A DNA stretch of 58,424 nt, counting the filler, from Platydemus manokwari (lineage: Eukaryota): the NCBI GenBank assembly GCA_037951405.1. It is 5 parts of 5 records of this genome, joined end to end, with 100 filler letters (N's around TTAATTAATTAA, not from the genome) between each part and the next. Parts side by side here need not be neighbours in the genome. Positions count along the whole stretch, not along the records: positions 13,434 to 28,190 come from JBBMOY011399201.1; 4 more parts are not named here. The stretch is one strand, 5' to 3'. The translations under genes and the position numbers were made by a program. This document shows positions 3,331 through 51,599 of this stretch, piece after piece. Under the pieces are notes generated by a model that was given only the letters and a program-made list of their open reading frames with translations, searched no databases and was not told the DNA's origin. Position 1 is the stretch's first letter; each line of letters opens with the position of its first letter.

Positions 3331-3963
3331 TAAAATGTAAAATTAGAAATATTTGTTTAAATATTCGGATTTAAAATAGATTTGATTGTGTCTTGACTTT
3401 TTTGGTTTGGTTTTAGTTTGTAGTTTTTAAAGTCGTAGCGACTAACATGGCGACAACGCATCTGGAATCGAACCTGAAAAGAACAACGACTGTAAATTAT
3501 AAAGAAGATATAAGGAAGAGATAAACAAGTTGTAGAAGAGATAAAACGGAGATATAAAAGATGTAGAAAAAGATTTTAGAGAATATATTAGAGAAGATAT
3601 AATAGAAGATATAATGGAAGATATAAAAGAAGATATAAAATAAGATATAACAAAAGATATAATGGAAGATAAAAAAGAAGTTACTAAAAGATAGAAGAAT
3701 TAAGTTTTTCAGATTATTGAAGACAGAGATAATTAAGAAAATCAAAGATTTTAAAGAAAGGCGGATGTGAGATATTTTGTAGAAATTTAATTTTAAACAA
3801 TTTCTATTCACATTTTATTCAAATTTTATTCAAATTTTATTTAGATTTAATTTGATTTTATAAAAAAAATTTTAATTAATGTAAAATTAGAAATATTTGT
3901 TTAAATATTTGGATTTAAAATAGATTTGATTGTGTCTTGACACTTTTTTGGTTTTGTTTTAGT
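3331..3963 (+). repeat. ~85-bp direct repeat pair (3331-3417 / ~3878-3963) enclosing a degenerate 12-bp tandem array (GAAGATATAATA-like)
   Basis: aatgtaaaattagaaatatttgtttaaatatt(c/t)ggatttaaaatagatttgattgtgtcttgac occurs twice; the array at ~3500-3680 reads EDIIEDIMEDIKEDIK in one frame, with stops. Confidence 0.85.
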
Positions 3964-4589: not shown

Positions 4590-5880
4590 AATGATATTAG
4601 TAACATTAGTAATTGAAATGACAACACTGGTAATACAACCCTTTTAATTAAATAATTTATTTGAAAAAAACGAAATCAAGTAAGACTAAAACAGAACGAA
4701 ACAAATTTTACCAAAATGTGTAGTACACTGCGCAAGCAGATAACTCCTTGATACTCAAAACACCGAGTAGCGGAAGGAAAGAATTAGGGAGACGACACAA
4801 GACAATTAATATAAAATTAATTGAATTATGTACCAATTATGCAATGACAAATAATCTTGCGAATACGAATGAATAACCGGAACACGTATATCAATATCGT
4901 AGCTTAACTTCTGTAGTGTGTTATTCTGCGAATAATCGTCAACTGTGATAGTTAATTGTGTGGGGTGAATATTATGTTTATTTGGCATTTGCTATGGTGC
5001 TGTTTCCACAACGGGCGCTATTGTTATTCTTTGAAATTACATTTTATTTCTTATATTTGTCCAGCGCAATGGCTGTTACTAATTTTATTCTTTTTTGTTA
5101 CAGACATTTGTTTTTACCAATGGTAGATCTGATAAAAATCGAATAGAATAGATTTCTGATGTTACTATTTTTATTTCTCTGTTATCTGATTTATTTCGCT
5201 TCTTTTAGATAAGATAAAATATAACTTATTTTATGAATTGTACTTTTATTGTTATTATTATTGCATTTATTATTACTATCATTGTTATTATTTATATTAT
5301 TATCATTATGTATGTTATTATTGTCGTTATTTTTATTATTACCATTATTGTTATTATTATTATTATTATTATTCTTAATGTTATTATTATAAGTCTCATT
5401 ATCGCTTAATTTTTATTATTATTATTATTATTCTGAATGTTATTATTATATTTCTCATTACCGCTTTTAGTCTTACTGTGTTAATGTTATATATTTTAAT
5501 GTCAATTTTCGTCTTTTCCATTTACTGTATTCGTAAGTAGCTCATTGCCTAATTCCCATTATTTGTCTGTCGCCTCAGTATAATCTCTTCTTCCAGCTCA
5601 CAAAAACAAAGTTCAAGAATTATTATCAAACTTCACATACACACAGATTCAAGCAATATAAGCGAATATAAGCAAAATGAACGAATATTGTTGATAATCA
5701 AACTGTTGTTAGGATTGATCAATCAAATGTTATTGTTGATTTGGGATTGATTATTGATTATGGGGTTTGAATATAATGTTCTTTTTGATATTGATTTTCG
5801 GGAAATTGAGATTGATTATTGTTGCTGGGGTTTAAATATGTTATCGTTGTTTGATTTTGATGATGAAAGTGCATCCTCAA
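4590..5880 (-). mobile_element. Degenerate LTR-like repeat, inverted relative of 12150-13150
   Basis: Reverse complement cttgcgcagtgtactacacattttggtaaaatt matches cttgcgtagtgcgtttcataatttgggcaaaat (~12952); shared caatcctaacaa/atcaacaataa blocks; internal (TTA)n tract at ~5240-5450. Confidence 0.5.
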
Positions 5881-6416
5881 CAGAAAAGTAAATTGAATAA
5901 TAATTATAATAATATTATGAATAATAATAATAAAATCATTGATATAATTGTTATTTTAGATAATTAATGAGAAAAATACTAAAAGGTAAGATATTTAAGT
6001 CAAGGTAAAAGGGGTTTGAACAAAGTAAAGTTTACTGGGTTTCTGAGCACGGAAGAATAGACATTAAAAATGTAATGAGAAAATTTCATCTCATCGAATA
6101 AGAAATGCAAAAGTAATGAAATGACATCCGTTATTATGAAATCATTACTTCTTTGAAAGATATCAGGCGCTCCTTTCTATTCAAAAGGTAAAGCATTTAA
6201 TTCACACAAACTATCGGTATCTACGAGCTCTAATTTGTATTTATCCTTAAATTAAATTATCTTTCTTCAAATTTAATTATGGAAAATATCTCAGAATTTT
6301 CAGATTATATCATATATGGCTTGTGGCAATCGTAATGGATGTGTCCCTTTCCTTGAAATTACATTAAATTTTCGATATTCTACACACTACATAATTCTGC
6401 CATCTTTTTTATTCGA

Positions 6417-6674
6417 ATGAACATAAAATCTGGATGCCTCGGCAGCAGCTTTCAACTTTTTAATGATGATCTGATCAACACCGTATGTAATATAATTGGT
6501 GGCAGTGTTGAGCTTGTTCTAGACGACACTCAGTGCTGGAAAACCAAGCAGAAAAGTATGCATGTTGCAAGCGAATTAAGCTTGTTAAATATTTTTAACA
6601 ACACTGCATGTTCGGCACAACTAGATCGAATATTAATAGAGATAAAAAATAATAATCTACTGAAAAATTTATAA
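6417..6674 (+). CDS. Possible terminal exon or pseudogene fragment of an unknown gene
   Basis: 85-aa ORF with protein-like composition; upstream frame interrupted by stops; no recognised motif. Confidence 0.25.
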   Translation: MNIKSGCLGSSFQLFNDDLINTVCNIIGGSVELVLDDTQCWKTKQKSMHVASELSLLNIFNNTACSAQLDRILIEIKNNNLLKNL

Positions 6675-6819
6675 GCGACATTTTATTTAAAAAAAACAAT
6701 TTAACTAATTTATGAAAACTTAATAAATAATATATTTTGAGATGTCATGTTTTACAATAAATTGAAATATCCTGGTCAAATAATAAACTGGTCGACAAGA
6801 AAAAGATATCACTTGCCCC

Positions 6820-8973
6820 CTACAGTGGTAACCAGATAATAATTCTAGAAATTATTCTGCAATATCGATATCGAGAGTGATCATTAAATGACAACGATCG
6901 ATAAATATCGCCAATTTTTTCAATCACATTATCATAACATCGATTACCTATAAGATTCCAAAGACTTGGTCGTCGTCAAAGTAACAACTTCATTGGTATC
7001 ATGGCAGAGGGAAGCCAGTTGTATCAGAACTCTGCCATCTAATAATAAATATTCATCAATGTTGCCTAGCAACAACAAAAGCTAACTCTCTCCAATCATA
7101 TGGTTGACCTTCACTGACCCAATATGTTTCACCATCGCTTGAAACTCATTGTCGAGCGAGTAACATTGCTCGAATCTCTCGTTGACGAATGCCACATTCT
7201 CACCAATCTATTGACAACAAGATAAAACATCAATATTATGCGCGATATTTGTCACAGAACAAGCCAACTTGATCTAGATAAACAACAGGTCGAGACTGGC
7301 ATTGCTCTAGACGCATCTTCGCTGTTTGAGCGGCTTTCTGTGCGGTGGAAAGCACCTCATTGATGAGGTCGTCATCATCTTCATCTTCATCGTCAGCATC
7401 ATCGTCGGATATTTCGGACTGACGATTATGAGAATAACTGTCATCGATTTCTGATTCTGGAGATCCTGTAGACATTGCTATGGTAACATCTTCACCACAA
7501 GGTTAGAAGGCATTACCTGTATCCAAGCTGCTTTGAGCACAGGCTTTCTTTGCTCCGAGGATTTTCGTGTCGATCGTTTGATTCTTTCGTTTATTGTTTG
7601 TCATGCTTTGCTGGAGGACATTTTTCTGAATTCGGTTAAAATAAAGATAAATAGCATTTAGTATACATTATGTGAACAGTGTTGTCATAGTTACACACTT
7701 TTCATTCGATACATTCTCCACCAATAACAAGGCAGAGAACAAAATAATTTTAAAAAAAACTTATGATAGCCACATATTGAGATCAAAATGACGAATAAAT
7801 CAGGAGAAAAATTCCAGGTCATTGATAAATAAATATTTTTCAAATTTCTAACCAATTAATCTCACCTGCAAAGCTCTGTGTGGTCGACCACTAGGAGCAT
7901 TTTTAGTGACCTCACTCTGAATAATCTTCATACGAGCTAGACAAGTCTCCCAATCGCCCATTTCAGCATCATTCAATCCCTTAGTCCAATTAAGCCTCGA
8001 TGTAATCGATTTATGAATGTTGTCTCGGGAACTTATTTTTTTGACATAATTCAGCATCTGAAAGAGATATCCGTAATAAATAAAACAAATCCAATTGTTA
8101 TTAGCGCAAATCGATCACCAAAAAGAACTGTCTGCTGTAAACAATGATACCTGAGCAGCAATCTTGTAGTAAACAGTGTCAGAGGTGTTGTAAATGAGAG
8201 CGTTCTGGCACATGAGTACCATATCATCGATCATATCAACCACACAACCATATTCGCCACCATCTATCTTGTGACGAATTGTTCGGAGATCCATCGGATG
8301 ATCAATGATACTAGAATAGTTTGGAGCTTGCTCTTCTGTGACTGGATATGCAAATATCATGTGACAATCTTTCTTTTCAATCATTTTAAACAGTTCCAGT
8401 AGAACGGATTTTATATTTTCCAATCCACTGCTTTCTCGAGCATAGATTGGACATATAGAAAGTGGACTCGACCCTGCTGTAATTAAAAACAATAGATAAT
8501 CTTATAATGATTGATTCAAGATCTATTTGCTAATATATCCATTAATAATATTAATGAAATTAAATGAAATCAATGACTTAAAAATTATTTTTTTTATAAG
8601 TTTAAATACTAAAGTGAAATTCTTATTCAAAAAGAATATTTAAGAAAAGAACCTGAAACATCATCTCCGATCAAATCAGGTTTTTCATCTCCATTAATTG
8701 ATGTCGATTCCGAAATATTATCTAGTCCTAAACAAACAAACAATCAAAATTGAGAGCTATCCTGGGAAATAGAAAATAATTTTTACCGATTTTGTATCTG
8801 GGACTGTGATTTTTAATAGACTCATCTTTGATAAACTTTATCTTGACACATGGACTTTTACCTGGCGCAACTTCAGAAGAATTCTATTTTAAAAATATAT
8901 CATATAAATTTATTAATTTTATTTAAAAAACCTGTCTTTGAACGGTAAAACTATAAACATTATCCAAATTCAT
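6820..8973 (-). CDS. Bromodomain protein, BRD7/BRD9-like, multi-exon (3' end uncertain)
   Basis: Bromodomain FAYPVTEEQAPNYSSIIDHPMDLRTIRHKI...LMCQNALIYNTSDTVYYKIA (8115-8492); ATG at 8973; downstream exons splice in frame (7866-8057, 7517-7625, 7270-7477, 7087-7208, 6949-7038) with an acidic stretch and AQKAAQTAKMRL...VVYL reminiscent of BRD7/9. Confidence 0.8.
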
Positions 8974-9391
8974 TTTTAAATTTTGCTAAAAATTTCAAAT
9001 AATATTAAAACGAATCTCATATAAATTGACATTTAATGATATTCATTTGAAATCAGGTTTAATTAAATATCATTTTTATAAAAAATTATTTTAAAAAGTT
9101 CTAGCAAATTTATATTTTATTAATGAAAAATTAAAAAAACTCAAAAATAATCTCTATAAAAATATACATCAAATTAGTTTGCAGTGAACATTTTTGGTAC
9201 ATTGTTAATAATCTCAAACAGAAGTTTAATTATAACTCATTTTAAAAATACGAATTTATAAATTAACAATACCAATAATGAGGTAAAATTTATCTGATAA
9301 ATCATGTATGTGGCTTTAATGTTGCGCATTAGATTATATATTAAAACTATTTCATGAAACCAACAACTAAAATAGAGTATATTTACAACAA

Positions 9392-10294
9392 TCAATTATT
9401 ATCAAAATTATTCTCTCCTCGACAATACTGTTCAAGATCATCTGTATCACAGCTTTTGGAATTTAGTAATATATAATGCCTTTCAATTTCTAAATCCGGC
9501 CCGCAACACATTTCCCCTGTCGAATAATTCTTTACATTCATTTCTGCTGGTGTTCGTCGTTTTATTTCTAAATAATTCCCCGCGTCGTCTCGCTTTCTCT
9601 CGTGAGCCTTCAGATGAACATTACAATTTGATTTCTTTTGGAATCGTTTATGACAAATATGGCATTCATAAGGTTTAATACCCTTGTGAATCCGCTGGTG
9701 GATTTCGTAGTACACTTTCTTTGTGAAGCTCTTCTCACACAAATCACAATGGAATGTAGGATCGTTATGTGTTTGTAAATGAGGCCTTAAAAATTTGACC
9801 ATTTTATTGCAAACAGGACACTGTTGTAATTCCACATTTGAATGCATAAGCCCGTTATGGATTTTCAAAAGAACCTTATTATCAAAGTCTTCCTCGCAAT
9901 GATTACATGGAAACTTATTAGGCTGATCGTGTGTTTTCAAATGTGCTTCATATCGTACCTTGATTTTAAATTGTTTCTCACAAATTCCACACGAGAACTT
10001 TGTACTGCATTTATTTGATTTCTTAGCAGGAGTTTCTGAATTTAGAGATTCATTATTTCTACGTTTTCTGGAATTGTTCAAAATATTTAATTCGCAACTG
10101 ATATTTTCTTTATCAATAGACCTTAAGGTTCTTTTTACAACTTGTCCAAGGCAATCAGTGTTATTTTCGAATAAATTTTTTGTTATTTTTGGACAAATAT
10201 CTTCGTCTAGACCAATTACCTGATAAGTTTCATTTTGTTGTAATTTTGAAATTTTGAAATTTTTCTTACCTTCAGAAGATTTTATGTTTTTCAT
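9392..10294 (-). CDS. C2H2 zinc-finger protein (5 fingers)
   Basis: CGIC..HLKTH, CNHC..HNGLMH, CPVC..HLQTH, CDLC..HQRIH-KGIKPYECHIC..HLKAH; an AG acceptor at ~10305 suggests a possible upstream exon. Confidence 0.93.
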   Translation of the reverse strand: MKNIKSSEGKKNFKISKLQQNETYQVIGLDEDICPKITKNLFENNTDCLGQVVKRTLRSIDKENISCELNILNNSRKRRNNESLNSETPAKKSNKCSTKFSCGICEKQFKIKVRYEAHLKTHDQPNKFPCNHCEEDFDNKVLLKIHNGLMHSNVELQQCPVCNKMVKFLRPHLQTHNDPTFHCDLCEKSFTKKVYYEIHQRIHKGIKPYECHICHKRFQKKSNCNVHLKAHERKRDDAGNYLEIKRRTPAEMNVKNYSTGEMCCGPDLEIERHYILLNSKSCDTDDLEQYCRGENNFDNN

Positions 10295-10759
10295 TAAAAG
10301 TTCCTAAATGTTTTGACATTAATCCAAAAAAATTCATTATTAGTTTATTAAAACATTTAATACAAAAATTCATATGATTTTGGAAAATGTCCTCACAAAA
10401 TTTTTAAACAATAATTAGATAAAAAATAAGCTAATTAAATACTGAAATTCTAGTAACTAATCTTACAAAATATAATTTTAAATGATAATTGCGTAACATA
10501 TAATTATTTAAACAAATGTATTAGAACTATTATTTTGTACAATCATTAAAATGTTAAATTAATTAGCGTTATTTTATTTAGAATTTAGAAAATTTAGAAA
10601 ATTTAAAAATGTGAATTTTATAACCTTAATTTATATAAATAAGTTAAACAAAAGGAAATTTTATACCATAACTGAGTTTTCAAATTAAATTTTATTTTTA
10701 TACGAAAAATCTAGAGAGTAGAATTAAAATCATTAATATATTTAGATGAATTAATATTC

Positions 10760-12150
10760 AATTACTTTGATACGTTCAAGCTTCTCGGTAATTTTCAATG
10801 TTTACATTTAATCAGTTTCAGGCTACTTACTGATAATACTTCTGTATAACTATCACTCTTTCTGAGTTTCATAATAGAAGAACGGATTCGCACCTTGTAA
10901 CCCTTGTTTTAGCACTTTAAACATTTGCATACCTACACAACCATACGGGTATGGCGATCAATCAATAATACTTGAAAGGGAATTTAAATTAGTACTTTGC
11001 GAATAACAAAATTTTCTTTCTTTCATTATTACAATGGGCATATAATTTTTGTCCAATGTCTTCTTTGTATTGGGAAGAATAATCGAATTTCAAATTTAAA
11101 TTGATGGCTTTGGCAATTAACTATATTTTATGGTTTCATAGAGATTAAATAATGAGATGCCATTGATGCCTTCGAGCTTTTTACTAATAATTTGAACTGG
11201 ATTACTCAGAATATTTTATTTCATTTGATTTTCAAAATAATCTTTACATTATTTTAGTTACAATATGAGAACAATATGCTGAATATTAAAGGTATTTATT
11301 GTATAGGTTATTAAATATTCATCTCACTTTTTATTTTCGAGAAGTTGTATCCAAAAAAGATAAAAATAGACTGAATAATAAATTAACCCCAAATACATTA
11401 ACAGTAACTGATTAATAATTTAATAATTTAAAATAATAAAATAATTTACAGTTTTTCTTATCATTTATTTTATTTACTTTTATATTAAAATATTAAGTCA
11501 TCAGACATGAAATATATTGGGTACAGTTATTGGTCATCCTTAATTTCGAAGTCTTTGAAATGGTGAACTTTAAAATATTCATATAAAAAATAAGAAAATT
11601 GCTCAACTTTATATTGGTTGGATCTCTATGCAATGTTGAATTAATATCGTTTGATGAGTTAATTTTGTTGTGTTGTTTATCTTGCATCTATCACTCAAGA
11701 ATAATTAGTAAAGTACCAGCTTTGTATTAATTTCTGGACTTCCCATTAAATTTGTGATTCAAGGACTCTTTTATTGTTTCAGAGCTAAACTATAGATATA
11801 TTAGGTTTCAGAACCTTTTGGTTTTTAGCCAAATGTCTCAATGAGTGTCGATAAATATTCCTTCCAGTAAAAATAAGACATGCCTGATCAGAGGATGAAT
11901 TTGCAGAGTGTTTGTTTTACAGTCTTCAGCTAACTATTGGTTTCTCAAAAAATAATGGGTCATCTAAGCTGTTAATCAATGCTTATATATGAATTGGGTT
12001 GTCTATGTTTATTCTCTGGCATCAAATTTATTGACAAGGGACTTACTTAAATTTTGTTTTAATTTATTTCTTCGAAACTTTTATCTGGAAGTTTTATAAT
12101 GGATTAAATTATTTTTTATTTTCATATTCGCATCCCATTTTCTGAAAATC
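10760..12150 (-). pseudogene. Highly degraded Ty3/gypsy pol (RT/integrase) remnants
   Basis: Minus-strand translation VGMQMFKVLKQGLQGANPFF (~10880-10940) resembles the RT motif GxYxFxxMPFGLxNAPxxF; SNPVQIISKKLEG resembles SPxxLVxKKxG; many stops. Confidence 0.5.
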
Positions 12151-13150
12151 CTCAAGAATAATATTTACATACAATTTTTTACGATAAATCATAAATAATT
12201 ACCGCATTGAGCAGCACCTACAGCAATCCTAACAATATCAAGTATTACTAATATCAACAATAAATCCCAACCTAATATTTCAATTCAACAAATCATCTTT
12301 AATCTATAGAGTAAGATCTTAAATAAATTCTTGCAAAAACGACTCACCAAATCAATCATTTTTAACAATTTTTAATCAATCGAAATTCATATATTTCTAA
12401 TTTCTCTCAATATCCAACTATAATCAATACTGTCAAGAAACAGTCAGGTCAACATTCCCAAATACTAACACTGTTTTCAATTCACAAGGCAAAGCTTATC
12501 TAACAATTCAAATCCCAATTTAATTCTATTAAGTTATGAAAAACAGTAAACAATAAGGCAAGTTTAAATAAGATTAAAAAATATCTAATCATATCTGATC
12601 AGATAAAAGAAGAGCAGATTGCACAACAATAGAAAAATAATAGTAACGATTATTCTACCGTACAAATACTTATAATATTTTTTAACATAAAATAAAAACA
12701 TCACCATCACACAAATGGCACCCGTAGCGAATATTATATAAGCAGGCAGTAGTTTGAACAACAACAGACACAACAAATAACGAGAAGACGAAACATCTGC
12801 GAATTCAATTCCTTTCATAATTGTAGGTTACATTATCCTTATATTATCTCAATAACTCCAATTTAATTGATCTATAATTAACATTCATTGTTATCGCTCT
12901 CATTTGTCGCTTTCCCGGTATCCAGTATACGGATATCACGCAGAAAACTACTTGCGTAGTGCGTTTCATAATTTGGGCAAAATATTTTTGTTGATTATTG
13001 TTCGCAGTTTTCTTCATTTTATCTTAAATAAATTCTCATATTAGACCATCACATTCTAAATAATTGCAGCTTCAATAATTATAACTATTAACATATTATT
13101 TCGTATCAATGCTGCAAACCAGAAAGATGGAAACAATATTAATTGTTTTA
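12150..13150 (+). mobile_element. Degenerate LTR-like repeat (relative of 4590-5880)
   Basis: Shared blocks with the reverse complement of 4590-5880; TATA-like ctataatta at ~12872 followed by a GC-richer R-like segment and aataaa. Confidence 0.5.
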
Positions 13151-13433
13151 ACACAGAGGTTGTGATTTTTGATGATAATGTACCTAAAATTTTGGAAAAA
13201 TATATTAAGTTAAATTAAAAATTATATCCCAAAATATGGTTTTGAGTTTAGGAATATTATAACAGTAAAAAGTAATATTAGAGTTATTGGTAATTTTACT
13301 TATGAGTTTAATTTTTGGAAAACCGAGAAGGATNNNNNNNNNNNNNNNNNNNNNNNNNNNNNNNNNNNNNNNNNNNNTTAATTAATTAANNNNNNNNNNN
13401 NNNNNNNNNNNNNNNNNNNNNNNNNNNNNNNNN

Positions 13434-13510
13434 CATACATACATACATACATACATACATACATACATACATACATACATACATACATACATACATACAT
13501 ACATACATAC
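13434..13510 (+). repeat. (CATA)n microsatellite at contig edge
   Basis: About 19 perfect CATA units next to the gap. Confidence 0.97.
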
Positions 13511-15574
13511 CTTCAATTTTTACATAAATACCATTTATTTTTGTTTAAATTCCGATTCAGTTTATCTTGCTATTTTCTCAATTTTTGTGTTTGTTCACTT
13601 ATCATTCATTTTCACTTGTTATTCTTCATATCAAAACTTTTCAACTTCTTAGGATTATTTCATTGATTTTCATTGTTTGATTAGATAAAGTTCTTAGTTC
13701 TTTTTCAGATATGTATAAGTCCTTTTCGATTTTATAATTGTTAGGAACATTGCATCCTGTGTCCTAATCAGTGTTATCCTAGCAATTTATTTACCTATCT
13801 TTCTGGTAACGTTTTACAAATTTATTAAATATTCTTGTTGCCTTAATTAAACTTACTTAATTTTTCATTCCATTGTTATTTTTATTATTAGATTTGTTAT
13901 AAAAATCATCTCTTATTAAAGAACTACCTGTGGTGGAGCTATTATTATCTTTTTTATATATTATTAATGGTTCCATTTAACTTCTGCTAAAGAAATATAT
14001 GAAACACGATATTTTTTACATTGAAATATATACATTGACATTTTCAAACAAAACAGTCCTTGCACTCATTTTCAAATCAATATAATTAACATAAACAACT
14101 TCTTTTATCGGCTACCATTGGCAATAGGCCATCTTCTCTTCTACATTTAAATTCGGAGTTTGCGTGGTTTTTGTTTGGTAAATTTTAATTTGATGTTCTA
14201 TTTCCTCAATTCTAACTGGATTTATCGATATCTCATGACTTGGTTGGTCAATCTCCGTCTCTCATTGTTCGGTTTTCATACCTGCATGGTCGTGTAGGCA
14301 TGCATGTGTGAGAAGTATAAAATCAGGGATTCGAAATTGCGATTTTATGCTACATTCATCGCCACTCAACAATATCAACCGAATTATGCCGTTCACATAA
14401 TTTACCATCCATTATAGGCGAATTATTTTGATCAATGCGATTTATTCCCAGGAATGATTTATTCCGAAAGAATGCTGACTATTGAATTTGGTTTTAGTTA
14501 TTAAAAAAAGACTGCGTGTCTTTCCCTTGATTTGGTTTAAGTTATCGTTCAAACCTCTTATGTTCAAAAATTACAATATGGAAAGTTTTCTCCGATGAAC
14601 AATTAATTTGATGTATCAAGAAAATGGCATTTACTAAAATTCGTCCAAATTATTAGGAAACTGAAACAATTTTACCCACTACAAATTGTAAATTGAATAA
14701 CCAACTTTGACTATAAACAAAGTAAGCATGTTAAAATATAGAAAATAATAATGATTACAAAATGTTTCTTGTCGTTTATTGGGATGAAAATTTGACTAAA
14801 CTATACATGTGCCGAAAAGTGAAACCATTTTAATAAGTAATAAATTACACACTGTTTTGATAATAATATTTTAGTCACTCACAAGAATGGAGCATCTGTA
14901 AAATATCTAATATTGGGAGATAAAAGGCTTATTAGATTTGACAAGTTTAGTTAAATTTTCGAAACTGCACTTGATTAAGTCATTCTAAACCAACTATTCG
15001 ATATTAGATAGGTACATTACTCCATTATTGTACTTAGTGTCAAAAAAGTTATCAAGTGTTAAAAAAAATGCAATAAAATTGACAAATACGAACTTAAATC
15101 CTTAATCGTGAAACTAAACATGCAAAAATGACGAATATAAAGATCGACAGAACAAAAACACGAATTCATAGTTTGTCATTAAAATTTTTGAATAGAATTT
15201 TAAAATTCCAAATCCTAATTTTATCCAAATATTATTCAGAGACGAGACCCAGAACTCTTGTAAAATTATATTTCAACAAATTAATCTTAACGATCCTTTA
15301 GAAAACAATTCTCAAAACGAAGTGGAACTCGTGGATATTTAATAAACAAAACTAAATATAATAAAGCAGATATGATGTTGGTGAAATAAAAATCATATTC
15401 TGTCATGGAAAAAACGACACCATGACTATTGCACAGAGCACAATAAAATTGACACAAAAATCAGAACGAATATACATCAATAATAATAATTCTAATCGTA
15501 TAAACATTTTTTGTTAACCGATAAAATTTACAATACGGCAGAGATGATGTCAAATATTGCAGCTGAGCACTAAT

Positions 15575-16813
15575 TTAACAGAACTAAAATCCAATATTAA
15601 TCAAGATTAAAAAAAGAATAATCTTTACCTTCCATCTATGACCACAATTATTACAAAATGCAAATGTTGTCATTGGTTCATCAGCACTTCTTGTTTGAAC
15701 TTGATTATATGAGCAACGCGATTGACGACATTTGGGACATTTTATCAAATCAGTTTCGGTACCACCACCAATAGATAATTGTGACTCATGAATGACCTCA
15801 TCCATGTATTTATTACGAAGATCTTTCATTTCTTTGCTAGCCATATCCTTAACAAGTAATTTATTAGTATAAACTAATGTCTTCAATATATTGGTGCAAC
15901 ACTGATTCTAAAATAAATAAAAAAAATAAATACCTCTGACGACATGACTGCAAGTTTTTCAGCCGAAACAGATCCCGCCAAAACGTTCAATCGCAACTCA
16001 ACATTATTCTGATCTCTCAAATTCATAACTCTAGTACGAACTCTTTGCTTATAAGCAGGTCCCGAATTCATAAAAACATTAAAAATAGCGGTTTCGATTT
16101 GTACAGATAAATACTCCGTGTCATAAGAACCATCTGGTACATCTAATATTACACTTTTAAAAACCTTAAAAGTCAATAATCAAAATGTCATACGTCCACT
16201 TTCTAAAGCTTGACTTATCATGGACCTAGCTTTTATTCTAAAAGGATCACTGGTATCTGTATTTCTTTGAAATATCTGTTTTGGTGGATGAACCGAACTA
16301 TCTTTAGATCTTGAACTAATGATGCTGCTATGATTACTATTTTCATTTGCAGATTCTGAAGATTCTAATCGTATACGTTTTTCACCATTTGGTTTTTCGT
16401 CTTCACTTGAACCATTTTCACTGTCTCTTGAAGGAGAATGATCATCGTTTAGTCTAGGTCTTTTTGTGGTTTTCACGTCTAAATTCGAATACTAAAATTT
16501 AGCGACTCATGCACACTGAAACTACTTGGAACGAGTTTCTTCCATTGTTTTATCAACTGCTTCGCAACTGCAGTTACTGAACAATCCTTACATTTCTTAC
16601 GAAATTTATTAATTATTAAACCAATTCCCGTTTTTGTAAGAATATTAAGAGTCATTTCAATACCACTTAACCTTTCCATATATCTTATAATTGTCTCTGG
16701 ATCCTAATATTTTTAATATTCAATGAAAAAAAATTGAAAAAATAAATTTTAACTTCTTCATTAGAATCTAAAATCTTTTGCAGTCTTTTACAAATTTTTG
16801 AGGTATCTTCCAT
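15575..16813 (-). CDS. TCEA1: Transcription elongation factor S-II (TFIIS), multi-exon
   Basis: N-terminal LNILTKTGIGLIINKFRK, central YKQRVRTRVMNLRDQNNVELRLNVLAG, Zn ribbon CPKCRQSRCSYNQVQTRSADEPMTTFAFCNNCGHRWK|FC*; ATG at 16813, last intron 15584-15628, TAA at 15575. Confidence 0.96.
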
Positions 16814-17850
16814 TACAATAAATTATAAATAAATATTACAAATTTAAACAACTGTAAAATTGGTTTAGTCAATATTTAAACTTTTTAATTTTACACATTA
16901 TACTAAAAATTCTAAATACTAACATTAATTAAAAACAAATTAAGATATTTTAAAGTTTTATTTTTATAAATCAAGTGATGAAATTCACATCTTCGGGCAA
17001 TTCAAACATTATTTTATTAATAAAATACAATACAAAATTTCTCAAATTTAAGTTTTGATTAGTTTGATTTTTCAGAAAAATATAGTTTTTGGTTTCAAAC
17101 TAAAACTCAAGCAACAAACTTATTCTTTCAGTAATGTAAAGATTGGGAGTATTAAAAATAAAATGTTGAATATGTTAATTGCATTTCGAAAACCATATAA
17201 TTTAATTAAGCATAGTAAATTATAAACATTTTGAATTTTTTATTTAAATATCTAAGACAAATTTGAGTTCTATGAAATCAAAAATTAAATAAACTAGGCC
17301 TTCAATTTTTCACAGAAAATAATTATAGGAAAGCAAATCAAATTCGAAAAAGATAAAAATTAGCGATGATACATTAGAAGAAAGTGGTATGATGCACTGA
17401 AAACATGCAATTAATCTGTGATAAGCAATCATGTTATATAATTAAATGTGTCATGAGTTTAGTAAGTAAATTTATTATTTAAAAATATATAATTGAAGAT
17501 AGTTACAATTAAAATTGGTTATTGAAGTTTTCATTAAAATTACTTATTGGTGGAAGAGCTTTGATAATAACTCGAAGAATGAATGTATTTATCTTGATAG
17601 GCTCTTTATTGAGACTAAATGAGACTAAAATGAAACTAAATTTGTACTGAAATTAACGAAGTACTTTCATGTTATATAATTTATTATTTATATCTTCAAT
17701 ATTTATTATTCGCTGTGAGTATCCTCCTCTAATCTTTGTTTATTTTGTCATTAATAGTAAAATTTTGTTCTAATATTGTTAATTACAATACTACTTTTTA
17801 AAATTGATTTATCGTTATTTGTTAATTTCAATCATTTTTAGATAATTTAT

Positions 17851-22045: not shown

Positions 22046-22831
22046 AAAGGGGGGAGATATGTCGGGATAATACCCATGCAGGCCGCAAGCCTATAAATTA
22101 TAAATTATTATAATAAATTATTATAATACATAATAATTACACAATATTTATATAATAATAAAATGAGAACAGAAAACCCACATTAATTAAAATGTAGGCA
22201 TGTGGTCTCAATGATATTAATAATAGTTGTAAATTTTTTTGAAAAAATGATTAAAAATGATTATTAATCCACGTTGCCATGGTAATCCGAAATATAGTTA
22301 TTGAAATTCAAATTTAAATGCAAATTGCCATGACAACGATGGATCTTACTAAGGGAACCTACAAATCAAAAATAAAAGTCAATATGCACCCACATTCCAA
22401 ACCCGTATAAATACTGAAGTAAAATTCAGTATTTTGCCACAAAATTACGCAGTTCATAGCGATTACAGATACTTCAAGACTAAATTCGAGATTACAAATT
22501 CAAATTCGAGATTACAAATCCAAATTCGAGATTACAAATCCGATTACAAATCAAATACGAAGCAACATTCGCAGCAGAGTCAACTCATATACTCAACGAA
22601 ATTCAGTCATTTCAAGCCTCCGGCGACAATTGCTTACCTATTATTCAGCTCAATTATTGATTCAAAATGGTAAAAGTTCATTATTATTTTGCTCACCTGA
22701 TATCATTCTCCGAAAGGAGATTTGTTGTCAGTGAACATTAAACCCTCACAAAATCGTAACAGAGTTTGTGAGTCTAAAATCACTATTTCCTCCGGCGGTT
22801 GTTATTTACTGATAAATCTTCAGGGCACAAC
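22046..22831 (+). mobile_element. PPT plus 3' LTR of a Ty3/gypsy-type element
   Basis: PPT aaaggggggagata directly followed by TGTCGGG (22060); TATA gtataaata at ~22405; 20-bp tandem aaattcgagattacaaat x3 (22482-22550); ends ...gggcacaACA at 22831. Confidence 0.75.
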
Positions 22832-22949
22832 AGCTTACTTCTTTTAACTTACAGCATAACACATTTGATAATATTTATTATAATAAAGTATTTGCTATTA
22901 CATTATTGTTGTTCTTATTAATATTTATATAACTCATTCACATGCAACC

Positions 22950-23889
22950 TATTAATCTGTGAAGCTTCAGAGATTGGTGGAAACATCAATCTCGAACTCA
23001 TGGAAGCTCATTTAATTACATAGTAAATTATTGGTTGAAAAATCGTTGATTCACTGTTAACTTATCACCAAACAAGTTTCCATCACCGCTCCTCTGTAGT
23101 TTATTTTGAAATTATAGTTTCCTTCAAATATTTTAATTTCATTGAAAGGTGTTTGAAATGTCATTCCTTCAAGATTTAATTTATCAATATGTTTTTATTA
23201 TGACTTGCTTTATTTGGACGTCTTTGTCTTTCAATTGGATATAAATGGCCTAAAACAAAATACAAAACATTTGTTATCATAATTTTCTACATTTACTATG
23301 TTATTCAAGACAAACTGAAGAGGTAAATAATTACTTCCAGATATAACATTTATCTTTGAAATATTTACAGTTATATTCCCCAATTCAAATATATTCCATC
23401 CAATTCCCTGAACTCTCATTAAATCATTATTTAATTGTTATGGAAAATCTTTTATTATTTTCATTAGTTCTTCTTCCATAATACTTTCTAATCCAATTTT
23501 TAATATTTGATCTGAACTTAACGTTATTGTTACATATTCAATTTCTTCAGTATTTGAAATTATTTTTTGTAATAACATTTTGATCATTATTTGGAATTTA
23601 TGATTTGGGTATTTATTAAGAAATTCTAATATTTCATTAAACTCTTCTGAAATAATAGAAATTATTTTTTATTAATTTTATGGGTTTTGTAAATATCACT
23701 CATAGTTAATGAAGACGAGGCTTCATTAATTGTATTATTGTTATCGATCGTATTATTGTTATTGTTCTTATTATTTTTATTAATAGAAGCGTTAAATTTC
23801 GCTATATGTTTTTTTGATTTTTCATTGGCACTGAGAGCCTGAATCGTTTTAAACGTTGTATCGCAAATTCCGCATTTATGCACGTTCAT
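22950..23889 (-). pseudogene. Zinc-finger plus N-terminal region of a Polinton/adintovirus-type protein-primed DNA polymerase B
   Basis: MNVHKCGICDTTFKTIQALSANEKSKKH (ZnF-like); VQGIGWNIF...ISGSNYLPLQFVLNNIVNVENYDNKCFVF and KLNLEGMTFQTPFNEIKIFE match the GSGW..GSSYxPLP..NxxNxDxxCF and LNxxGIxFP..IxxFE motifs found N-terminal of pPolB. Confidence 0.75.
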
Positions 23890-24009
23890 TTTTAAGTATA
23901 CTTTTCTAATAGGATTTTTAATTTTTTGATTTTTGTAATTTTCTGTTTTTCTAATTTTTGTGATTTTTGTAGTTTTCGTAATTTTGCGATATTTTTAGAT
24001 AGTATTTAA

Positions 24010-24108
24010 AGTAGTAATATACACCAGTCTTTTGGAGGTGTAATCCTCAAATGCGAGCGTGAGAGTGTTTGAGGGCTAGGCTGCCAAAGACTGGTGTACA
24101 CAACTACT
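24010..24108. repeat. 99-bp fold-back palindrome bounded by AGTAGT...ACTACT (putative Polinton-like terminus)
   Basis: AGTAGT-aata-TACACCAGTCTTT...CCTCAAA..TTTGAGG...AAAGACTGGTGTA-caca-ACTACT. Confidence 0.85.
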
Positions 24109-24149
24109 AATGAAGCATTCTGTGAATAGTTCTGGCACCATATAAAAAT

Positions 24150-25516
24150 ATTGAAATAATTCTTCTGCGCAAATAGAACTCTTTAAAAAACCTGTACTGA
24201 AGGTTTTATTATTGGTTCTTTTGCATGTTTAATCTTATCCTTATTTTGATTGTATCATCTTTTTTCATTAATCTATTGACTAAATCTTCTCTTATTACAT
24301 TAAGCTCAATTTCAGTATCAAAGAGCAATCAATTTTCTCATTCTCAACTTTAAAATCCACTTTTGGCTTAATTCTGCCTTTACTGCTTTTGCCAACATTC
24401 GTCTTGGTTTAACTCCTTGCCCATTCACAATCTGTGCATAATTGTACTAGATCAAATTAAATTGATTGAGCTTAGACTTTCTTGGCTTAACTTATTTCCA
24501 GTTACCCATATCTAACATATTAAAGTCTTTCTGAGAAAATGTATCTAAGCTCGAGACAGTGTCCTGTTCTGATGTGATGCTTCTTTCTTTGGTATTTAAG
24601 TATTTGACATCCTTGACATCTGTAAAACAATCTTAGCAGATGGAGACCACCACATGGAGAACGTTCAATTGACTTACAAAAACGAGCATAATGTACTTTT
24701 TGTTTACACTTGAAACAAGTTACGTCTTCAATTGATTTCTCTTGCAATCTGACTTTCGAAGAGTTTCTGCGCACTTTTAATTTGGCAATATAGTGCTTGA
24801 GCTTTGAATTCTCAACCTTTAATCTGCTCATCCTATACATCTGATTTTATATGTTTCATATTCTACGGCATATCCAAATCTTTGGATTCTGACTTGGAGA
24901 CATCAGTTTCTTCCTTGATACGTTAGACTGCTTTATCAACCTCTTACTGAGAAGCCCTTTAATGCATATATTCTTTGAAACCTCTTCCTTATTTTGAATA
25001 CTAATTCTTTTTGAAAATTCTTTGATGGACTCTGATGACAGTGTATGAAGTGTCCCAATTATCGTACATGACGTCATTCTTGATTTCTTCTTTTTGTATA
25101 TATCGGGAAGAATTTTCTAAATTGAAGATAACTGTCTTACGTAACTTAAATCGGATTTTATTTCAGACTTTACACCAGAACCTACATAAATTAATATTAA
25201 TTTGTTTCTCAAATTTTGTTGTTTCTTCTACATATTAGTACACTGAAGTAAGAAATTCTTTCACATTTTTATAATTAAAAATAGTTGGTTTCTTGAAAAT
25301 TAATCGAGCTATTTCTAAATCTCCTCGTAACTCCACGTGATAAATAAATGTAGAATATTAATATTTATTAATTCAAAAAGTATTACAAATATATAGCATT
25401 TAAACAAATACATATTTATATATACATATATTACAAATGCCAAATACGACGAATTAACAATTGACGAAACTGTACTTGAAAAAACTAGAGAAACTTTCGC
25501 AATACTAGGTGTTACA
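24150..25516 (-). mobile_element. Ty3/gypsy 5' fragment: short LTR (25326-25516), gag with zinc knuckle, protease remnant
   Basis: TGTAAC...GTTAC-bounded ~190-bp LTR; TCFKCKQKVHYARFC (CX2CX4HX4C); LLFDTEIELNVI resembling the ALLDTG protease motif; frameshifts. Confidence 0.75.
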
Positions 25517-26879
25517 TAGAAAAGAAGTTAACATGAAGTTGCGGAGAAACAAAAAGTTTGTGTGATAAAATATTTTATAATCTATAATATTAAGATCTTA
25601 TATCAAATTCAAATCAACTACTCCCGACTATAAATTTCTTGAGTTAAAATAACGTTGCTAAGTAAACTAATTGTGTGCTGAACCGATTATTAATTAAATA
25701 ATCAATTTCAAAATTTACATTTGTAATGAATAACAATTACATTTTGTTGTTTATTTTTGAATTTTACTTTTAGTTATTATTTTTGAATTATCTGACTATA
25801 CCTTTTGTGAATCTGATTATTTAATCTTGCATGAAAAATTGTATTTATGATTTCGATTTATTTATGTGAAAAATTATATATAAACGAAAAAATAAAAATT
25901 ATAAAATTCAAATTATATATTCTATATCAAAACCACATAATTGAAAAACAATATTAATAACAATTATTATTTTGCGGGATAATAATAATATTAAAAATTA
26001 TTATAAGGAATGATAATAATATAAATTATAAATACCGGCAAAAATTAATTAATTAAAATGTGGGCGTATTTGTGATCAAAAATTGAAATTTTAAATGTAG
26101 GAGAAAAAGTAAAAGATTATAAATAATATGGATGAAAAATAAATTAAAATTATTAATTTAGTCGGATTTGAAAAATAATTTCAATATCCAATAAGAAAAT
26201 AGAAAATAATAATCCAAAAGGATTATTCAGAATCCGCCCTGAAAAACACTATATAAGGAGTGGCAAAGCCACTAATTTCACTTACTAAGTTTTGAGTCTC
26301 ACAAAAGTTGTTAGACGATATCACAAGGATTAAAAGGACTAAATTATTTGGAGAAGGATTCTATAAAAAAGTGATACGACAAAAGATAAAAAGATGTGAT
26401 TACGACATTTAAAAAGTGTGATTTGAGTTTTCTTTTCAAAAGATATCTTAAAATTATATATCAACACAAAGGAGGTTCGTTATCGGAACCTTCCTTTGTG
26501 GAGCACTCATTTCTTAACCTGCGTATTGCATAAATTGAAGTATTTTTTTGTTTGAGTAAAGAATTTCGTTTGAATTTTAATGGGATTTTACTGTAGTCAA
26601 GTTTAAACATATTTTTACAATGTTATAAAGGAAAGAATAAGTTTTATTGATATAGTTCTTGAATTTATTTATTTGATTATAATTATAGAAGCACCGGACT
26701 GACACTGCGCTTCAACCGGTAGTAACGAACTCACATATATAGGTTGATTACAGAACCATAAACCACGCCATATATGTAACTCATTTGCTCATCACTTACA
26801 ACAGCTAAGCTTTGTTCATTGTCTGGAACAGAACTTCGTTCATTACCTAAGACAGAGGTTTACTCATCTTCATGGACAA

Positions 26880-27170
26880 CTATCCTTTCATTGTATTTCG
26901 CAATATGCTTTCGTGATTTTCACGTGCTTCAAAAGCTTGAATAGTCTTAAATATTTTAAAAAATTTGGCATTTATATGCGTTCATTTTTAAGATTATATT
27001 TTGCATAGGGTTTTTATTTATTGATTTAAAAATAAATTTTATTTGATATATAGAGGTTATAGAGAATTTATAGAGGTCTGTCTTTCGACGGTGTAATTCT
27101 TAAATACGAACGAGTGAGAGCAAGTGAGTATTTGAGGATCAGGGTTCAAAGACTGGTGTAAATAACTACT
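26880..27170 (-). mobile_element. Second, truncated copy of the palindromic terminus plus zinc-finger ORF start
   Basis: 27080-27170 gtcttt..gtgtaat..aaatac..gtatttgagg..aaagactggtgta.aataACTACT; ATG at 26985 reads MNAYKCQIF/IFKTIQAFEAR/KSRKHIAKYN with frameshifts, homologous to the ORF at 23889. Confidence 0.8.
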
Positions 27171-27629
27171 TATTTGTGTTATTTTTTCATTATTGCTAGT
27201 AAAAATATTTAAATAGTAAGTCGTTAGTGTACAAAGTTATTTTTCAATAATCTATCAATAAAACAATGCCTCAAAGACAACGCAGACAACAAATAAAACT
27301 GGTTTGTAACTGTATAACTATCAAATTTTCTTTATCAATAGTTTATTTATCGATCAATTTACTTTGTTCACTAAATTTCGCATACTTATAAGTTTTTAGT
27401 TAAAATTTTCTTCATTTATTTTATAACTTCATTTTGAATTATTGCGATATATAATGTGAATGGAAATTTTGCATTTTTATTCTTGCTCCATTTATATAGA
27501 ACAAATTCAAAAAAATTAAAATTGGTTAATAGTCTAATTTGATTATACAATAAATTAAAAATAATCTTTTAATTATTTTATACTTATTGTTTTACTTGGT
27601 TAAGAATTTCAATACATGAATTAAATAAC

Positions 27630-40384: not shown

Positions 40385-40689
40385 GGCTAAGGTATAGACT
40401 ACTCTGAACATTGTTTTATCAAACTATTTTTACATTGTTACCATGGTTGCCAAGGTTATTTGTTATTAAAAAAATAATTTTTACCAAAAATTTTTATTAA
40501 AAAAATAATTTTTACCAAAATTTTTTTTACCATATTCCTGCGCCTTTGCTATTAATTGCATGTCAGGGAAACGTTCTCTCGAAATCATTTGTTAAATATT
40601 CATTTATATTCATATTCATAATATGTAGGTCAACTTTTAGATTAAATTAGTTTGATAAAACAATGTTCAGAGTAGTCTATACCTTAGCC
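40385..40689. mobile_element. MITE with perfect 42-bp TIRs and an internal 29-bp tandem duplication
   Basis: ggctaaggtatagactactctgaacattgttttatcaaacta (40385-40426) and its exact reverse complement (40648-40689); ttattaaaaaaataatttttaccaaaa x2 at ~40463-40520. Confidence 0.92.
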
Positions 40690-49368: not shown

Positions 49369-50262
49369 CTAAATGTTTGTCACAGGTTCAATTGATAAAT
49401 CTCGCACGAAAATCTTTCGTTTCAAATATTTGCTATTCATGATAAAAATAAGCCCATTCGATAAAACATTAATGGTGCACATGTATCGATATACCAGTGG
49501 ATAAGGTGCCGATGGATATAATAAATTATAGAAATGAGGTGCAAATGTTGAAGTATACACAATGCTTGTCAAGAATGATGTCATACTGACTTTCATTACG
49601 ATGTTAATATTCTTTGTTGCATTGCTACTTGGTGATTTGTAAATTTTAAAGATAAAAATACAAATCAACACAATATAAGCTATTAGATTTGTTATCATCA
49701 GCATACAAAGTTCCGATAAATAATAGCTGTTGTAAAAATTATTGATTAACTTTCGTTCAGGATTTGATAATAATGCAGGGAACATCATTATAATTTTATG
49801 AGCTGCTTCTATTGGTAATATTATGCCAAAAAATAGTAAAATATAGATTTTTATAATGAGAGATTTGTTCCACTTGATCGTCAAAGGTTTTAATATTGCC
49901 ATGAGTCTATCAATTGCTAAAAAAATAAATATAATAAATTCCGAAAGAAGTAAACAATTATCTGTTTCAAACAATACAGCTGTAAAATCAATACTGGCAT
50001 GTGGCATACAAATGGCACGAATCCACATAAACACACAAATAATTAAATCTGTAGCTGTCAATATTTTCATAATTGTTTCATACGTTACTCTTTTTCCTAA
50101 AACATGAACAGGATATCTGTGATATTGAAAAAGCAAAGCTCCATTTAATAACAATCCAATAGCATAGATTGGATAATAGGCCAATAAAAAATTAATTATT
50201 TCAAAGTGTCGCTCGATAATTTTCGATGTATTTGTTTTATTCATTTTAATAAATTTAGACAT
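49369..50262 (-). CDS. Rhodopsin-family-like 7TM GPCR, intronless
   Basis: Seven hydrophobic segments; TM1 GLLLN, TM2 LTATDL, TM3 LAIDRLMAILKP, TM7 INVLSNGLIF followed by a helix-8-like SKYLKR. Confidence 0.85.
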   Translation of the reverse strand: MSKFIKMNKTNTSKIIERHFEIINFLLAYYPIYAIGLLLNGALLFQYHRYPVHVLGKRVTYETIMKILTATDLIICVFMWIRAICMPHASIDFTAVLFETDNCLLLSEFIIFIFLAIDRLMAILKPLTIKWNKSLIIKIYILLFFGIILPIEAAHKIIMMFPALLSNPERKLINNFYNSYYLSELCMLMITNLIAYIVLICIFIFKIYKSPSSNATKNINIVMKVSMTSFLTSIVYTSTFAPHFYNLLYPSAPYPLVYRYMCTINVLSNGLIFIMNSKYLKRKIFVRDLSIEPVTNI

Positions 50263-50402
50263 TAGCTTTTTGTTTTTATATCGATTGATTTATGAAGTTT
50301 TGAGTTTGTTTTATCCAATGATATTACTTGACAAATAAAAGACAAGAAAAATATATTTTTCAAATTTATGTCATCACAACTAAATCGAAACTTAGTGTTT
50401 TA

Positions 50403-50752
50403 TCTTCATTAAATTTAAATAAGATTTTAATTTATAGTTTTGTGTTTAAAACAATATAAATTTATAAATAAATTGGAATTATTTTCAAAATCTCTGGCAT
50501 ATTTATTCATTAGTTGAGATATCATTTGTTTGTGAAGGTTATTGGGGCAAGTACTAAATTGAAACTTATTGTTTTATTGATTTTCTCTTCATTAAATTTA
50601 AACAAGTTTTATCATAAATTTTAATTTATGGTTAAGTGTTATGAAACAATATCAATTTATAAATAAATTGGAATTATTTTCTAAATCTCTGGTTTATTTT
50701 TTTATTAGTTGAGATGTTATTAGGTTGTGAAGATTAATGTGGGCAAGTACTC
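50403..50752 (+). repeat. ~184-bp tandem duplication upstream of the GPCR
   Basis: tcttcattaaatttaaa...aatttataaataaattggaattattttc...attagttgagat...gggcaagtact occurs twice. Confidence 0.85.
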
Positions 50753-51599
50753 CAATAAATATGTAGGCTCTTTAATTTATAATTAATATGTATGAACTAT
50801 TAATTATACAACAATAATGTGATTTGCACTCTGTTTCACAAAGTAAATTTCGATATCCTGTGAAATGATATTTGAATACAGGAATAAAATTATATATGAT
50901 GAAATCAAATGGACTATTTTTTAAAGATGTTAAATGGGGAAGAAATATATTCATGTTATTAAAATGTACGGATTGTGTAATAATTTAATTATTTGTTTCC
51001 TTTATATTATAAAATATTCTACAATAGCTCGTTATATAATGTTCATCAAATTAATTGATATTTGTACATTAGTTCACATCTCGAATCCATCAGTTTAATG
51101 TTTTTTCCTAAATATAATTATGCACAAAATATATTTTATTGAGTTGAATTTGCTTTTGATTATGGTAATTTCCACAAAATTACAAATTGATGTGAAAAAT
51201 ATAAATATGTTATCATAAACTAAATTAAAAGAATTTGTTGAAGAATAGAGTTTTAAAAATCACTTTGGTTGTTGATATTTTATTGGTTAAATAGTTAAAA
51301 AAATAATTTTTCCTATAAATGTTTACTGTAAGAATATCAATGCTGTGGCCCAAACATCTGGCTACAAAAGTCAGTAATTGAAAAGCAACCCTCTGTACTG
51401 CTTTTTAAAAGAAATTCATCATAATTTAATTGTCGTAGTTATGAATTTATTCCACTCTTTAGTATATATTATATATTGTTTCAGTTATTCTCCCATTTCT
51501 TATTAAAAGGAAAATAATAGCCTTTCTGGCGATAAGTAGTTATAAAAAGACTACTATAAAACATACCTCTTGCAAAAGCCAATTTTTTTCACATAAATC

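Follow-up and report, generated by a model that had tools for sequence, protein, structure and literature searches.

The feature at 24010-24108 of the window is the pPolB-proximal end of a decayed element of the Polinton/Maverick class, and this end pairs with itself. The window is the whole stretch of Platydemus manokwari DNA that was analyzed (58,424 nt). Fold-backs of this kind are the ends of elements in one polymerase clade: they were 100-260 nt long with AGT-type tips on both arms, and their structure, their position at the element junction and their recurrence with changed arms were observed. We regard the fold-back as a real structure of the element end, at the level of a lineage, here carried by a decayed element of the Polinton class. 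As to its role, we lean slightly toward a local duplex origin for protein-primed replication.

The class assignment was indicated by a protein-primed family B polymerase (pPolB), present as decayed pieces only, by its terminal-protein (TP) and vOTU domains, and by a 5'-AG/(AGT)2 tip. Polinton/Maverick ends are described as 5'-(AGT)2//(ACT)2-3' (Barreat and Katzourakis 2021, PMC8097293), and their pPolB as bearing TP and vOTU domains N-terminally (PMC11161782). The window element resembled them in its AGTAGT tip, in this polymerase architecture, in its integration into host DNA and in its decay, decayed copies being the norm. Polinton ends pair with the far end through TIRs of 100-1,500 bp (PMC10748475), whereas here the inverted tip lay 99 nt inside the same end, and no far TIR, target-site duplication (TSD) or other gene was visible in the window. 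No remnant of an integrase, ATPase, protease or capsid gene was found in the window, where copies 1 and 2 are truncated (the scan took in 789 ORFs of 106 loci, with 37 clade ORFs at E 0.05). The window was joined from several contigs by 100-nt N linkers with a core of stops in all frames (at 13334, 28191, 38039 and 48175); therefore, adjacency across a linker is meaningless. Copy 1 of the end and its surroundings comprised the following.

24010-24108, no strand: terminal fold-back, copy 1; on its outer side the element ends at 24108
24086-24108, minus strand: outer arm, which is the element tip; its minus-strand sequence is AGTAGT-n4-TACACCAGTCTTT, and homology with copy 2 ends here
24010-24032, plus strand: inner arm, an inverted copy of the tip motif that differs in the 4-nt spacer only
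24043-24076, no strand: inner stem and CT/GA-rich loop; 12 positions with 8 Watson-Crick pairs, 3 G-T pairs and 1 mismatch
23915-23985, no strand: tandem repeats of period 9, A-rich on the minus strand, between the fold-back and the ATG; absent from copy 2
23665-23889, minus strand: start of the pPolB gene, a C2H2 (jaz-like) ZnF with a low-complexity linker, 75 codons
23090-23668, minus strand: decayed remains of the terminal-protein domain and of the first portion of vOTU, truncated at about 23090
24109-25200, minus strand: flank beyond the tip and outside the element; a repeat of high copy number that shows a gag-like CCHC knuckle (zf-CCHC_5, E 0.014, short of the cut-off)

The 99-bp palindrome with an AGTAGT-tipped outer stem, described in the first-pass annotation, proved real: 20 of the 23 positions of its outer arms (24010-24032 and 24086-24108) were paired, its folding energy was -22 kcal/mol (z -5.09), and none of 200 shuffles was equally stable. 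The inner stem CCTCAAA/TTTGAGG was likewise located (24045-24051/24068-24074), the repeats reported as 9-10 bp long were found with period 9, and the minus-strand ATG at 23889 does stand 219 nt from the end. In the computed fold, the plus-strand 3' end of copy 1 paired flush, with the interior as template. All 3 arm mismatches fell inside the 4-nt spacer next to AGTAGT (chance 0.0023), and the same spacer differed between copies 1 and 2; confinement of the mismatches to the spacer fits sequence-specific recognition of both arms. A public contig of 468 nt matched 23834-24301 with 0 differences, and because of this exact match the copy 1 hairpin is unlikely to be an assembly artefact, the contig coming from the single public run with the stretch, which may be its source sample. 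An exact contig of the same run also covered copy 2 (27005-27370).

The gene behind this end is a pseudogene. It had been read as a ZnF ORF continuing into pPolB, but it is not one ORF: the ZnF frame stops at 23665, and the pPolB part, in a different frame, contains 5 stops among its 203 codons and breaks off within the vOTU domain. This part matched residues 67-260 of a homologue, P0003, at 49% (over 195 aa), and in a tree of 235 tips and 135 columns it was sister to P0003 with support 0.99. The ZnF of the window fell below the Pfam cut-offs (best E 0.003), and that of P0003 passed the PF12171 cut-off. P0003, for which 6,820 relatives were found at E <=0.001, combines zf-C2H2_jaz with PF02945 Endonuclease_7, and full-length clade relatives matched PF03175. 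The architecture of PF02945 with PF03175 in these relatives is like that of the insect Mavericks Sf Maverick 1 and 2 (PMC5803895), and by the bidnavirus-hit criterion of PMC8502044 the relatives would, we infer, belong to the Alpha-class adintovirus PolB. Polinton terminal-protein domains have the little-finger fold of Y-family polymerases (PMC11161782); the best Foldseek matches of the P0003 model were Y-family polymerases (E 2.5e-3, prob 0.99, none at <=0.001), and the model suggests that the terminal-protein fold is kept in the relatives. The vOTU domain was named from its motif and from the same paper, not from a structural match; Cys C200 and His H308, at the expected vOTU positions, were invariant in 38 aligned relatives. 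An N-terminal C2H2-like motif occurred in 38 of the 169 proteins in the set, several of which share a cluster, and pPolB started less than 1.2 kb from an AGTAGT candidate end at five loci (L022, L040, L050, L056 and L065), so that ZnF fusion and a terminal pPolB are ordinary in this class. Cluster P0009 comprised nine ZnF-pPolB proteins, nearly identical and all annotated in a single moth species, which suggests a recently active family.

The boundary of the element was fixed by a second copy of the end, which the first-pass annotation had overlooked, along with a third pPolB at 51.7-58.1 kb.

27063-27170, minus strand: copy 2 of the terminus, in the same orientation as copy 1; its inner arm has decayed, while the outer arm and the inner stem persist
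26895-26985, minus strand: ZnF start of copy 2, frameshifted; its ATG is 185 nt away from the tip, and 139 nt align to copy 1 with 73% identity

Copies 1 and 2 had in common all 19 tip motif bases, the loop region and the ZnF start. Of the 12 inner-stem positions in copy 2, 10 formed Watson-Crick and 2 formed G-T pairs, and its outer stem retained the 6-bp core; its inner arm gave 15 of 23 pairs, and its fold was not significant (z -0.14). The last 100 nt of the two copies aligned at 0/1000 shuffles, against 56/1000 for the 200 nt past ACTACT. The homology thus ends exactly at ACTACT between unrelated flanks, and with the ZnF start adjoining the fold-back in both copies, the palindrome is linked to ZnF-pPolB and is, as had been proposed, a Polinton-type terminus and not an independent MITE. 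The 6-bp TSD that was to be looked for takes both ends of one copy; across the fold-backs themselves there was no perfect duplication, with 2-4 of 6 positions matching. Neither a far end nor a TSD was seen for any fold-back element (the window copies, L042 and L034), copies 1 and 2 being truncated within the window.

The flank at 24109-25200 is probably an LTR-retrotransposon fragment. Two further high-copy stretches, 22900-23085 and 26040-26300, were joined in other contigs of the public run (X1), and the first of them, which had no Pfam match, may by a motif be a retrotransposon RT. Among the matches listed (12 of 27), one contig of this run ran as copy 1 to 24028, then through 11 other letters, then as copy 2 from 27093. 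Its spacing was that of both copies, and 9 of the 11 deviating letters were the reverse complement of 27142-27150 in copy 2; this collinear contig is read, indirectly, as a further copy whose inner arm may be matched to the outer arm of copy 2. A 3.2-kb element spanning 24010-27170 (arms 92% complementary) was considered and rejected, as it had no target duplication and both ZnF starts point in the same direction. Rfam gave no match at E <=0.5 over 22500-27500.

Related elements carried the same kind of end. Loci encoding related pPolBs numbered 106 (830 kb); viral contigs supplied 26 of these, and metagenomes the best 80 of 449. The self-pairing end reported for the window recurred, with AGT-type tips, in two of the 106. 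L042 had a 126-nt AGTAGT...ACTACT fold-back at 5218-5343 (22/23 pairs, z -7.7), whose outer tip interrupts the pol gene of an LTR-retrotransposon and whose inner tip abuts mid-pPolB exactly. Upstream of both a small ORF and ZnF-pPolB, L034 had a 257-nt fold-back with AGTAAT...ATTACT tips (21/23 pairs, z -13.7). The L036 sequence starts within a homologous hairpin that was weak alone (z -2.0, 9/200), L031 showed a single clear homologous arm, after which came A-rich repeats and then the ATG, and in L028 a neighbouring gene occupied the place of the fold-back. Twenty shuffled sets of the 106 loci gave 0 such fold-backs. The L042 loop matched that of copy 2 in the same polarity (8/1000; the best tile in the whole window), and its match to the copy 1 loop was not significant (158/1000).

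L042, L034, L036, L031 and P0003 fell into one 23-tip pPolB clade with support 1.0 (FastTree; 171 sequences, 247 columns, 99 of the 106 loci being long enough), inside which the nodes were unsupported (0.0). Fold-backs occurred at 2 of 9 clade loci vs 0 of 97 others (Fisher p 0.035-0.13, on small counts). None of the 9 candidate AGTAGT ends at 8 loci outside the clade folded back (best 10-15/23); only those of L022 were confirmed by a TIR pair, and an AGTAGT at the L042 contig start, which is not that element's end, was excluded (10 to 9). Because the self-pairing end recurs in L042 and L034, a distinct lineage, as suggested earlier, is plausible.

In L042, ZnF-TP-vOTU is deleted at the inner-tip junction, much as in an adjacent deletion for which the inner tip is responsible; the same junction might also come from a mobile mini-element or from a deletion at the hairpin base. 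The outer tip of L042 lies inside an LTR-retrotransposon, as that of copy 1 probably also does. The exact tip motif had 0 matches in viral contigs, and scans of viral contigs with P0003, P0022 and the L042 ORF, one protein at a time, yielded no relatives. A tip-loop-tip pattern at 18 viral loci was in every case chance (arms 2-10/17, no pPolB), and in prokaryote genomes the pattern had 0 matches. On a Polinton-like contig, L054:590-793 is a hairpin of about 200 nt that lies between divergent genes and runs up to the ATG of pPolB; as it has no AGT tips, it was left uncounted. At L022:192-11300 lay an element of 11 kb whose pPolB is 159 nt away from the end; it has a pair of AGTAGT TIRs and encodes a major capsid protein of the virophage type. 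A 109-aa ORF in L027, without a Pfam match, resembles a Polinton protease by its motif only.

To our knowledge, the replication mode of Polintons has never been demonstrated. In the standard model two distant TIRs must pair, and in adenoviruses the TIR panhandle provides the duplex origin. If the fold-back is a local duplex origin, replication would remain protein-primed. Strand displacement would yield a single strand, and its 3' ...ACTACT end would pair with the inverted tip 80-240 nt inside, rebuilding locally the double-stranded origin that the long-range TIR panhandle supplies in adenoviruses and ordinary Polintons. The terminal-protein domain would then initiate on the (ACT)2 template with jump-back, and the same tip would serve as the integrase end. 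Copying through the hairpin would keep the two arms matched and would thus explain why arms that were only 5-10/17 identical between elements paired within each one (L042, L034 and copy 1). Tips of the (AGT)2 type are linked with jump-back initiation in protein-primed replicons (PMC8097293), and since the clade keeps such tips together with TP and vOTU, priming by protein is probable. The ACTACT junction in two window copies and the outer AGTAGT junction in L042 supported a local origin; against it stood the inner arm of copy 2, mostly lost, the single arm of L031, its absence from L028 and the weakness of L036 alone.

A more compact design was suggested by copy 3, which lies on another contig piece.

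51729-58120, minus strand: copy 3, a heavily decayed pPolB; profile positions 260-1122, two large insertions, 5' part beyond the window
51535-51722, plus strand: candidate decayed far end of copy 3; AGTAGT-n9-ACTACT at 51535-51555, loop-like motif near 51605, ATTACT at the pPolB stop

The copy 3 pPolB terminates near 51720 (profile match E 6e-22). The AGTAGT-n9-ACTACT, 165-185 nt past the stop, was equaled in 1/3000 regional and 5/300 window shuffles; the stop itself carried a 12/14 inverted match (40/2000), and the loop-like motif was joint fourth in the window. All of these were noticed post hoc, and the fold of the region was not significant (z -0.40). From these motifs, and from the lack of other Polinton genes in the window, one may construct a lineage of elements that are about 4 kb long and made up of nothing but fold-back, ZnF-pPolB and fold-back, with self-contained hairpin origins that are protein- or hairpin-primed, an endonuclease-VII-like domain of the polymerase that resolves the end, and an integrase acting in trans. 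We consider this rather doubtful. Clade locus L035, which has its pPolB and next ORF in common with L036, encodes an rve integrase, and at least part of the clade is therefore not pPolB-only; the compact pPolB-only element of the first-pass annotation loses ground on this account and retains the weak end-like motifs past the copy 3 stop. If true, such a lineage would connect the protein priming of Polintons with ends of the parvovirus type.

Parvovirus termini are hairpins, and the end could prime itself in their manner: the paired 3' ACTACT end would prime inward synthesis, and the endonuclease-VII-like domain or an integrase would reopen it. The geometry fits, as the terminal palindrome is similar in size to those termini and its plus-strand 3' end is flush-paired and able to prime. 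The PF02945 Endonuclease_7 domain was found in P0003 and L042, but also in pPolBs whose ends do not fold (L040), and the TP domain, the vOTU catalytic columns and the (AGT)2 tips are all retained, which argues against self-priming. Rolling-hairpin replication predicts flip/flop loops, although some parvovirus ends keep one orientation. The flip/flop foreseen earlier was not observed: the loop had one polarity in the 3 copies read (copy 1, copy 2 and L042) and in the one inferred from X1, which under flip/flop has a 1-in-8 chance and is weak evidence. Unlike parvoviruses, the elements, incomplete as they are, showed no NS1/Rep gene, with no Pfam match to an HUH nickase or SF3 helicase around copies 1-2 or among the scanned clade ORFs near any fold-back. 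Bidnaviruses possess a pPolB, and their TIRs form no hairpins (PMC4061559). Hairpin priming has been proposed for the palindromic ends of protist virophages and PLVs (10.64898/2026.07.28.741278); for the present ends we hold self-priming to be unlikely.

The same preprint offers accidental annealing as the alternative (10.64898/2026.07.28.741278), and the fold-back may likewise be a functionless by-product, for which the nascent strand would snap back at a short pre-existing stem and the tip would be copied by template switching, with repeated origin and decay. Template switching is conceivable, since the inner arm has decayed in copy 2; that arm is present in copy 1 and doubtful in L031, and the X1 contig suggests a different conversion tract. 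The copy 1 mismatches, however, all lie in a spacer that varies between copies (p 0.0023), as would be expected of a selected motif, the fold-backs are limited to one clade, and the loop motif is conserved in copy 2 and L042. We consider a by-product improbable. It is very unlikely that the fold-back is a self-mobile, non-autonomous mini-Polinton (a MITE of 99-260 nt) placed at element ends by chance: it has an integrase-type tip at both ends, the inner tip in L042 joins mid-pPolB exactly and in copy 1 and L042 the flanking 6 bp agree at 4/6, but two window copies whose outer flanks differ have it in the same place with respect to the ZnF ATG, and L034 and L036 in the same place with respect to the small ORF, the two sides of L042 are different elements and not an interrupted target, no duplication is perfect, and read depth in the public run was 240 and 41 over the hairpin bins vs about 4,600-17,800 over the flanking gag-like repeat, so that the hairpin is no high-copy MITE at >=80% identity.

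Terminal palindromes have been described in virophages of Halocafeteria seosinensis and in PLV subtype 4, for which hairpin priming or accidental annealing was offered (10.64898/2026.07.28.741278). The window end resembles these in having its palindrome at the very end, adjoining the host junction. The Halocafeteria palindromes are tight (52 nt in subtype 5, searched with a gap <=10), accompany preferentially non-pPolB replicases and belong to a protist, whereas here a long imperfect fold-back with a loop and AGT-type tips accompanies a TP-bearing pPolB in an animal genome. An AGT-tipped fold-back at a pPolB Polinton end was not found in the portions covered of PMC11161782, PMC10748475, PMC8097293, 10.1101/2024.01.15.575659, PMC8502044, PMC8363768, PMC12220804, PMC8504770, PMC5803895, PMC4028283, PMC3014272, PMC6431247, PMC4061559 and 10.64898/2026.07.28.741278, a scope outside which lie the founding Polinton papers, Repbase and supplements. 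The main text of PMC8502044 does not contain the word "hairpin", nor that of PMC5803895 the word "inverted". ZnF-pPolB near an AGTAGT end is ordinary, and terminal palindromes were already known in protist virophages and PLVs, mostly without pPolB; what is new relative to these sources are the AGT-tipped fold-backs upstream of pPolB in the metagenome loci L042 and L034, in the same pPolB clade and with different arms.

The finding extends terminal palindromes from non-pPolB protist virophages and PLVs to TP-bearing pPolB elements in an animal genome. With its own inverted tip, each end would provide a substrate of about 100 nt that separates protein priming from hairpin priming in vitro. Elements of this clade are predicted to tolerate short or unequal TIRs, and screens based on TIRs or on tight palindromes would therefore miss them.

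Elsewhere in the window, diverged direct repeats lay at 50449-50742 (spacing about 195 nt) and 3334-3947 (spacing 544 nt). Arms of 46 nt, 98% complementary and 213 nt apart, marked a probable MITE at 40385-40689. On the minus strand, 49369-50289 contained an intronless, divergent 7TM receptor ORF, a host gene indicative of an animal, that had no Pfam match and whose Atlas look-alikes were serpentine chemoreceptor clusters.
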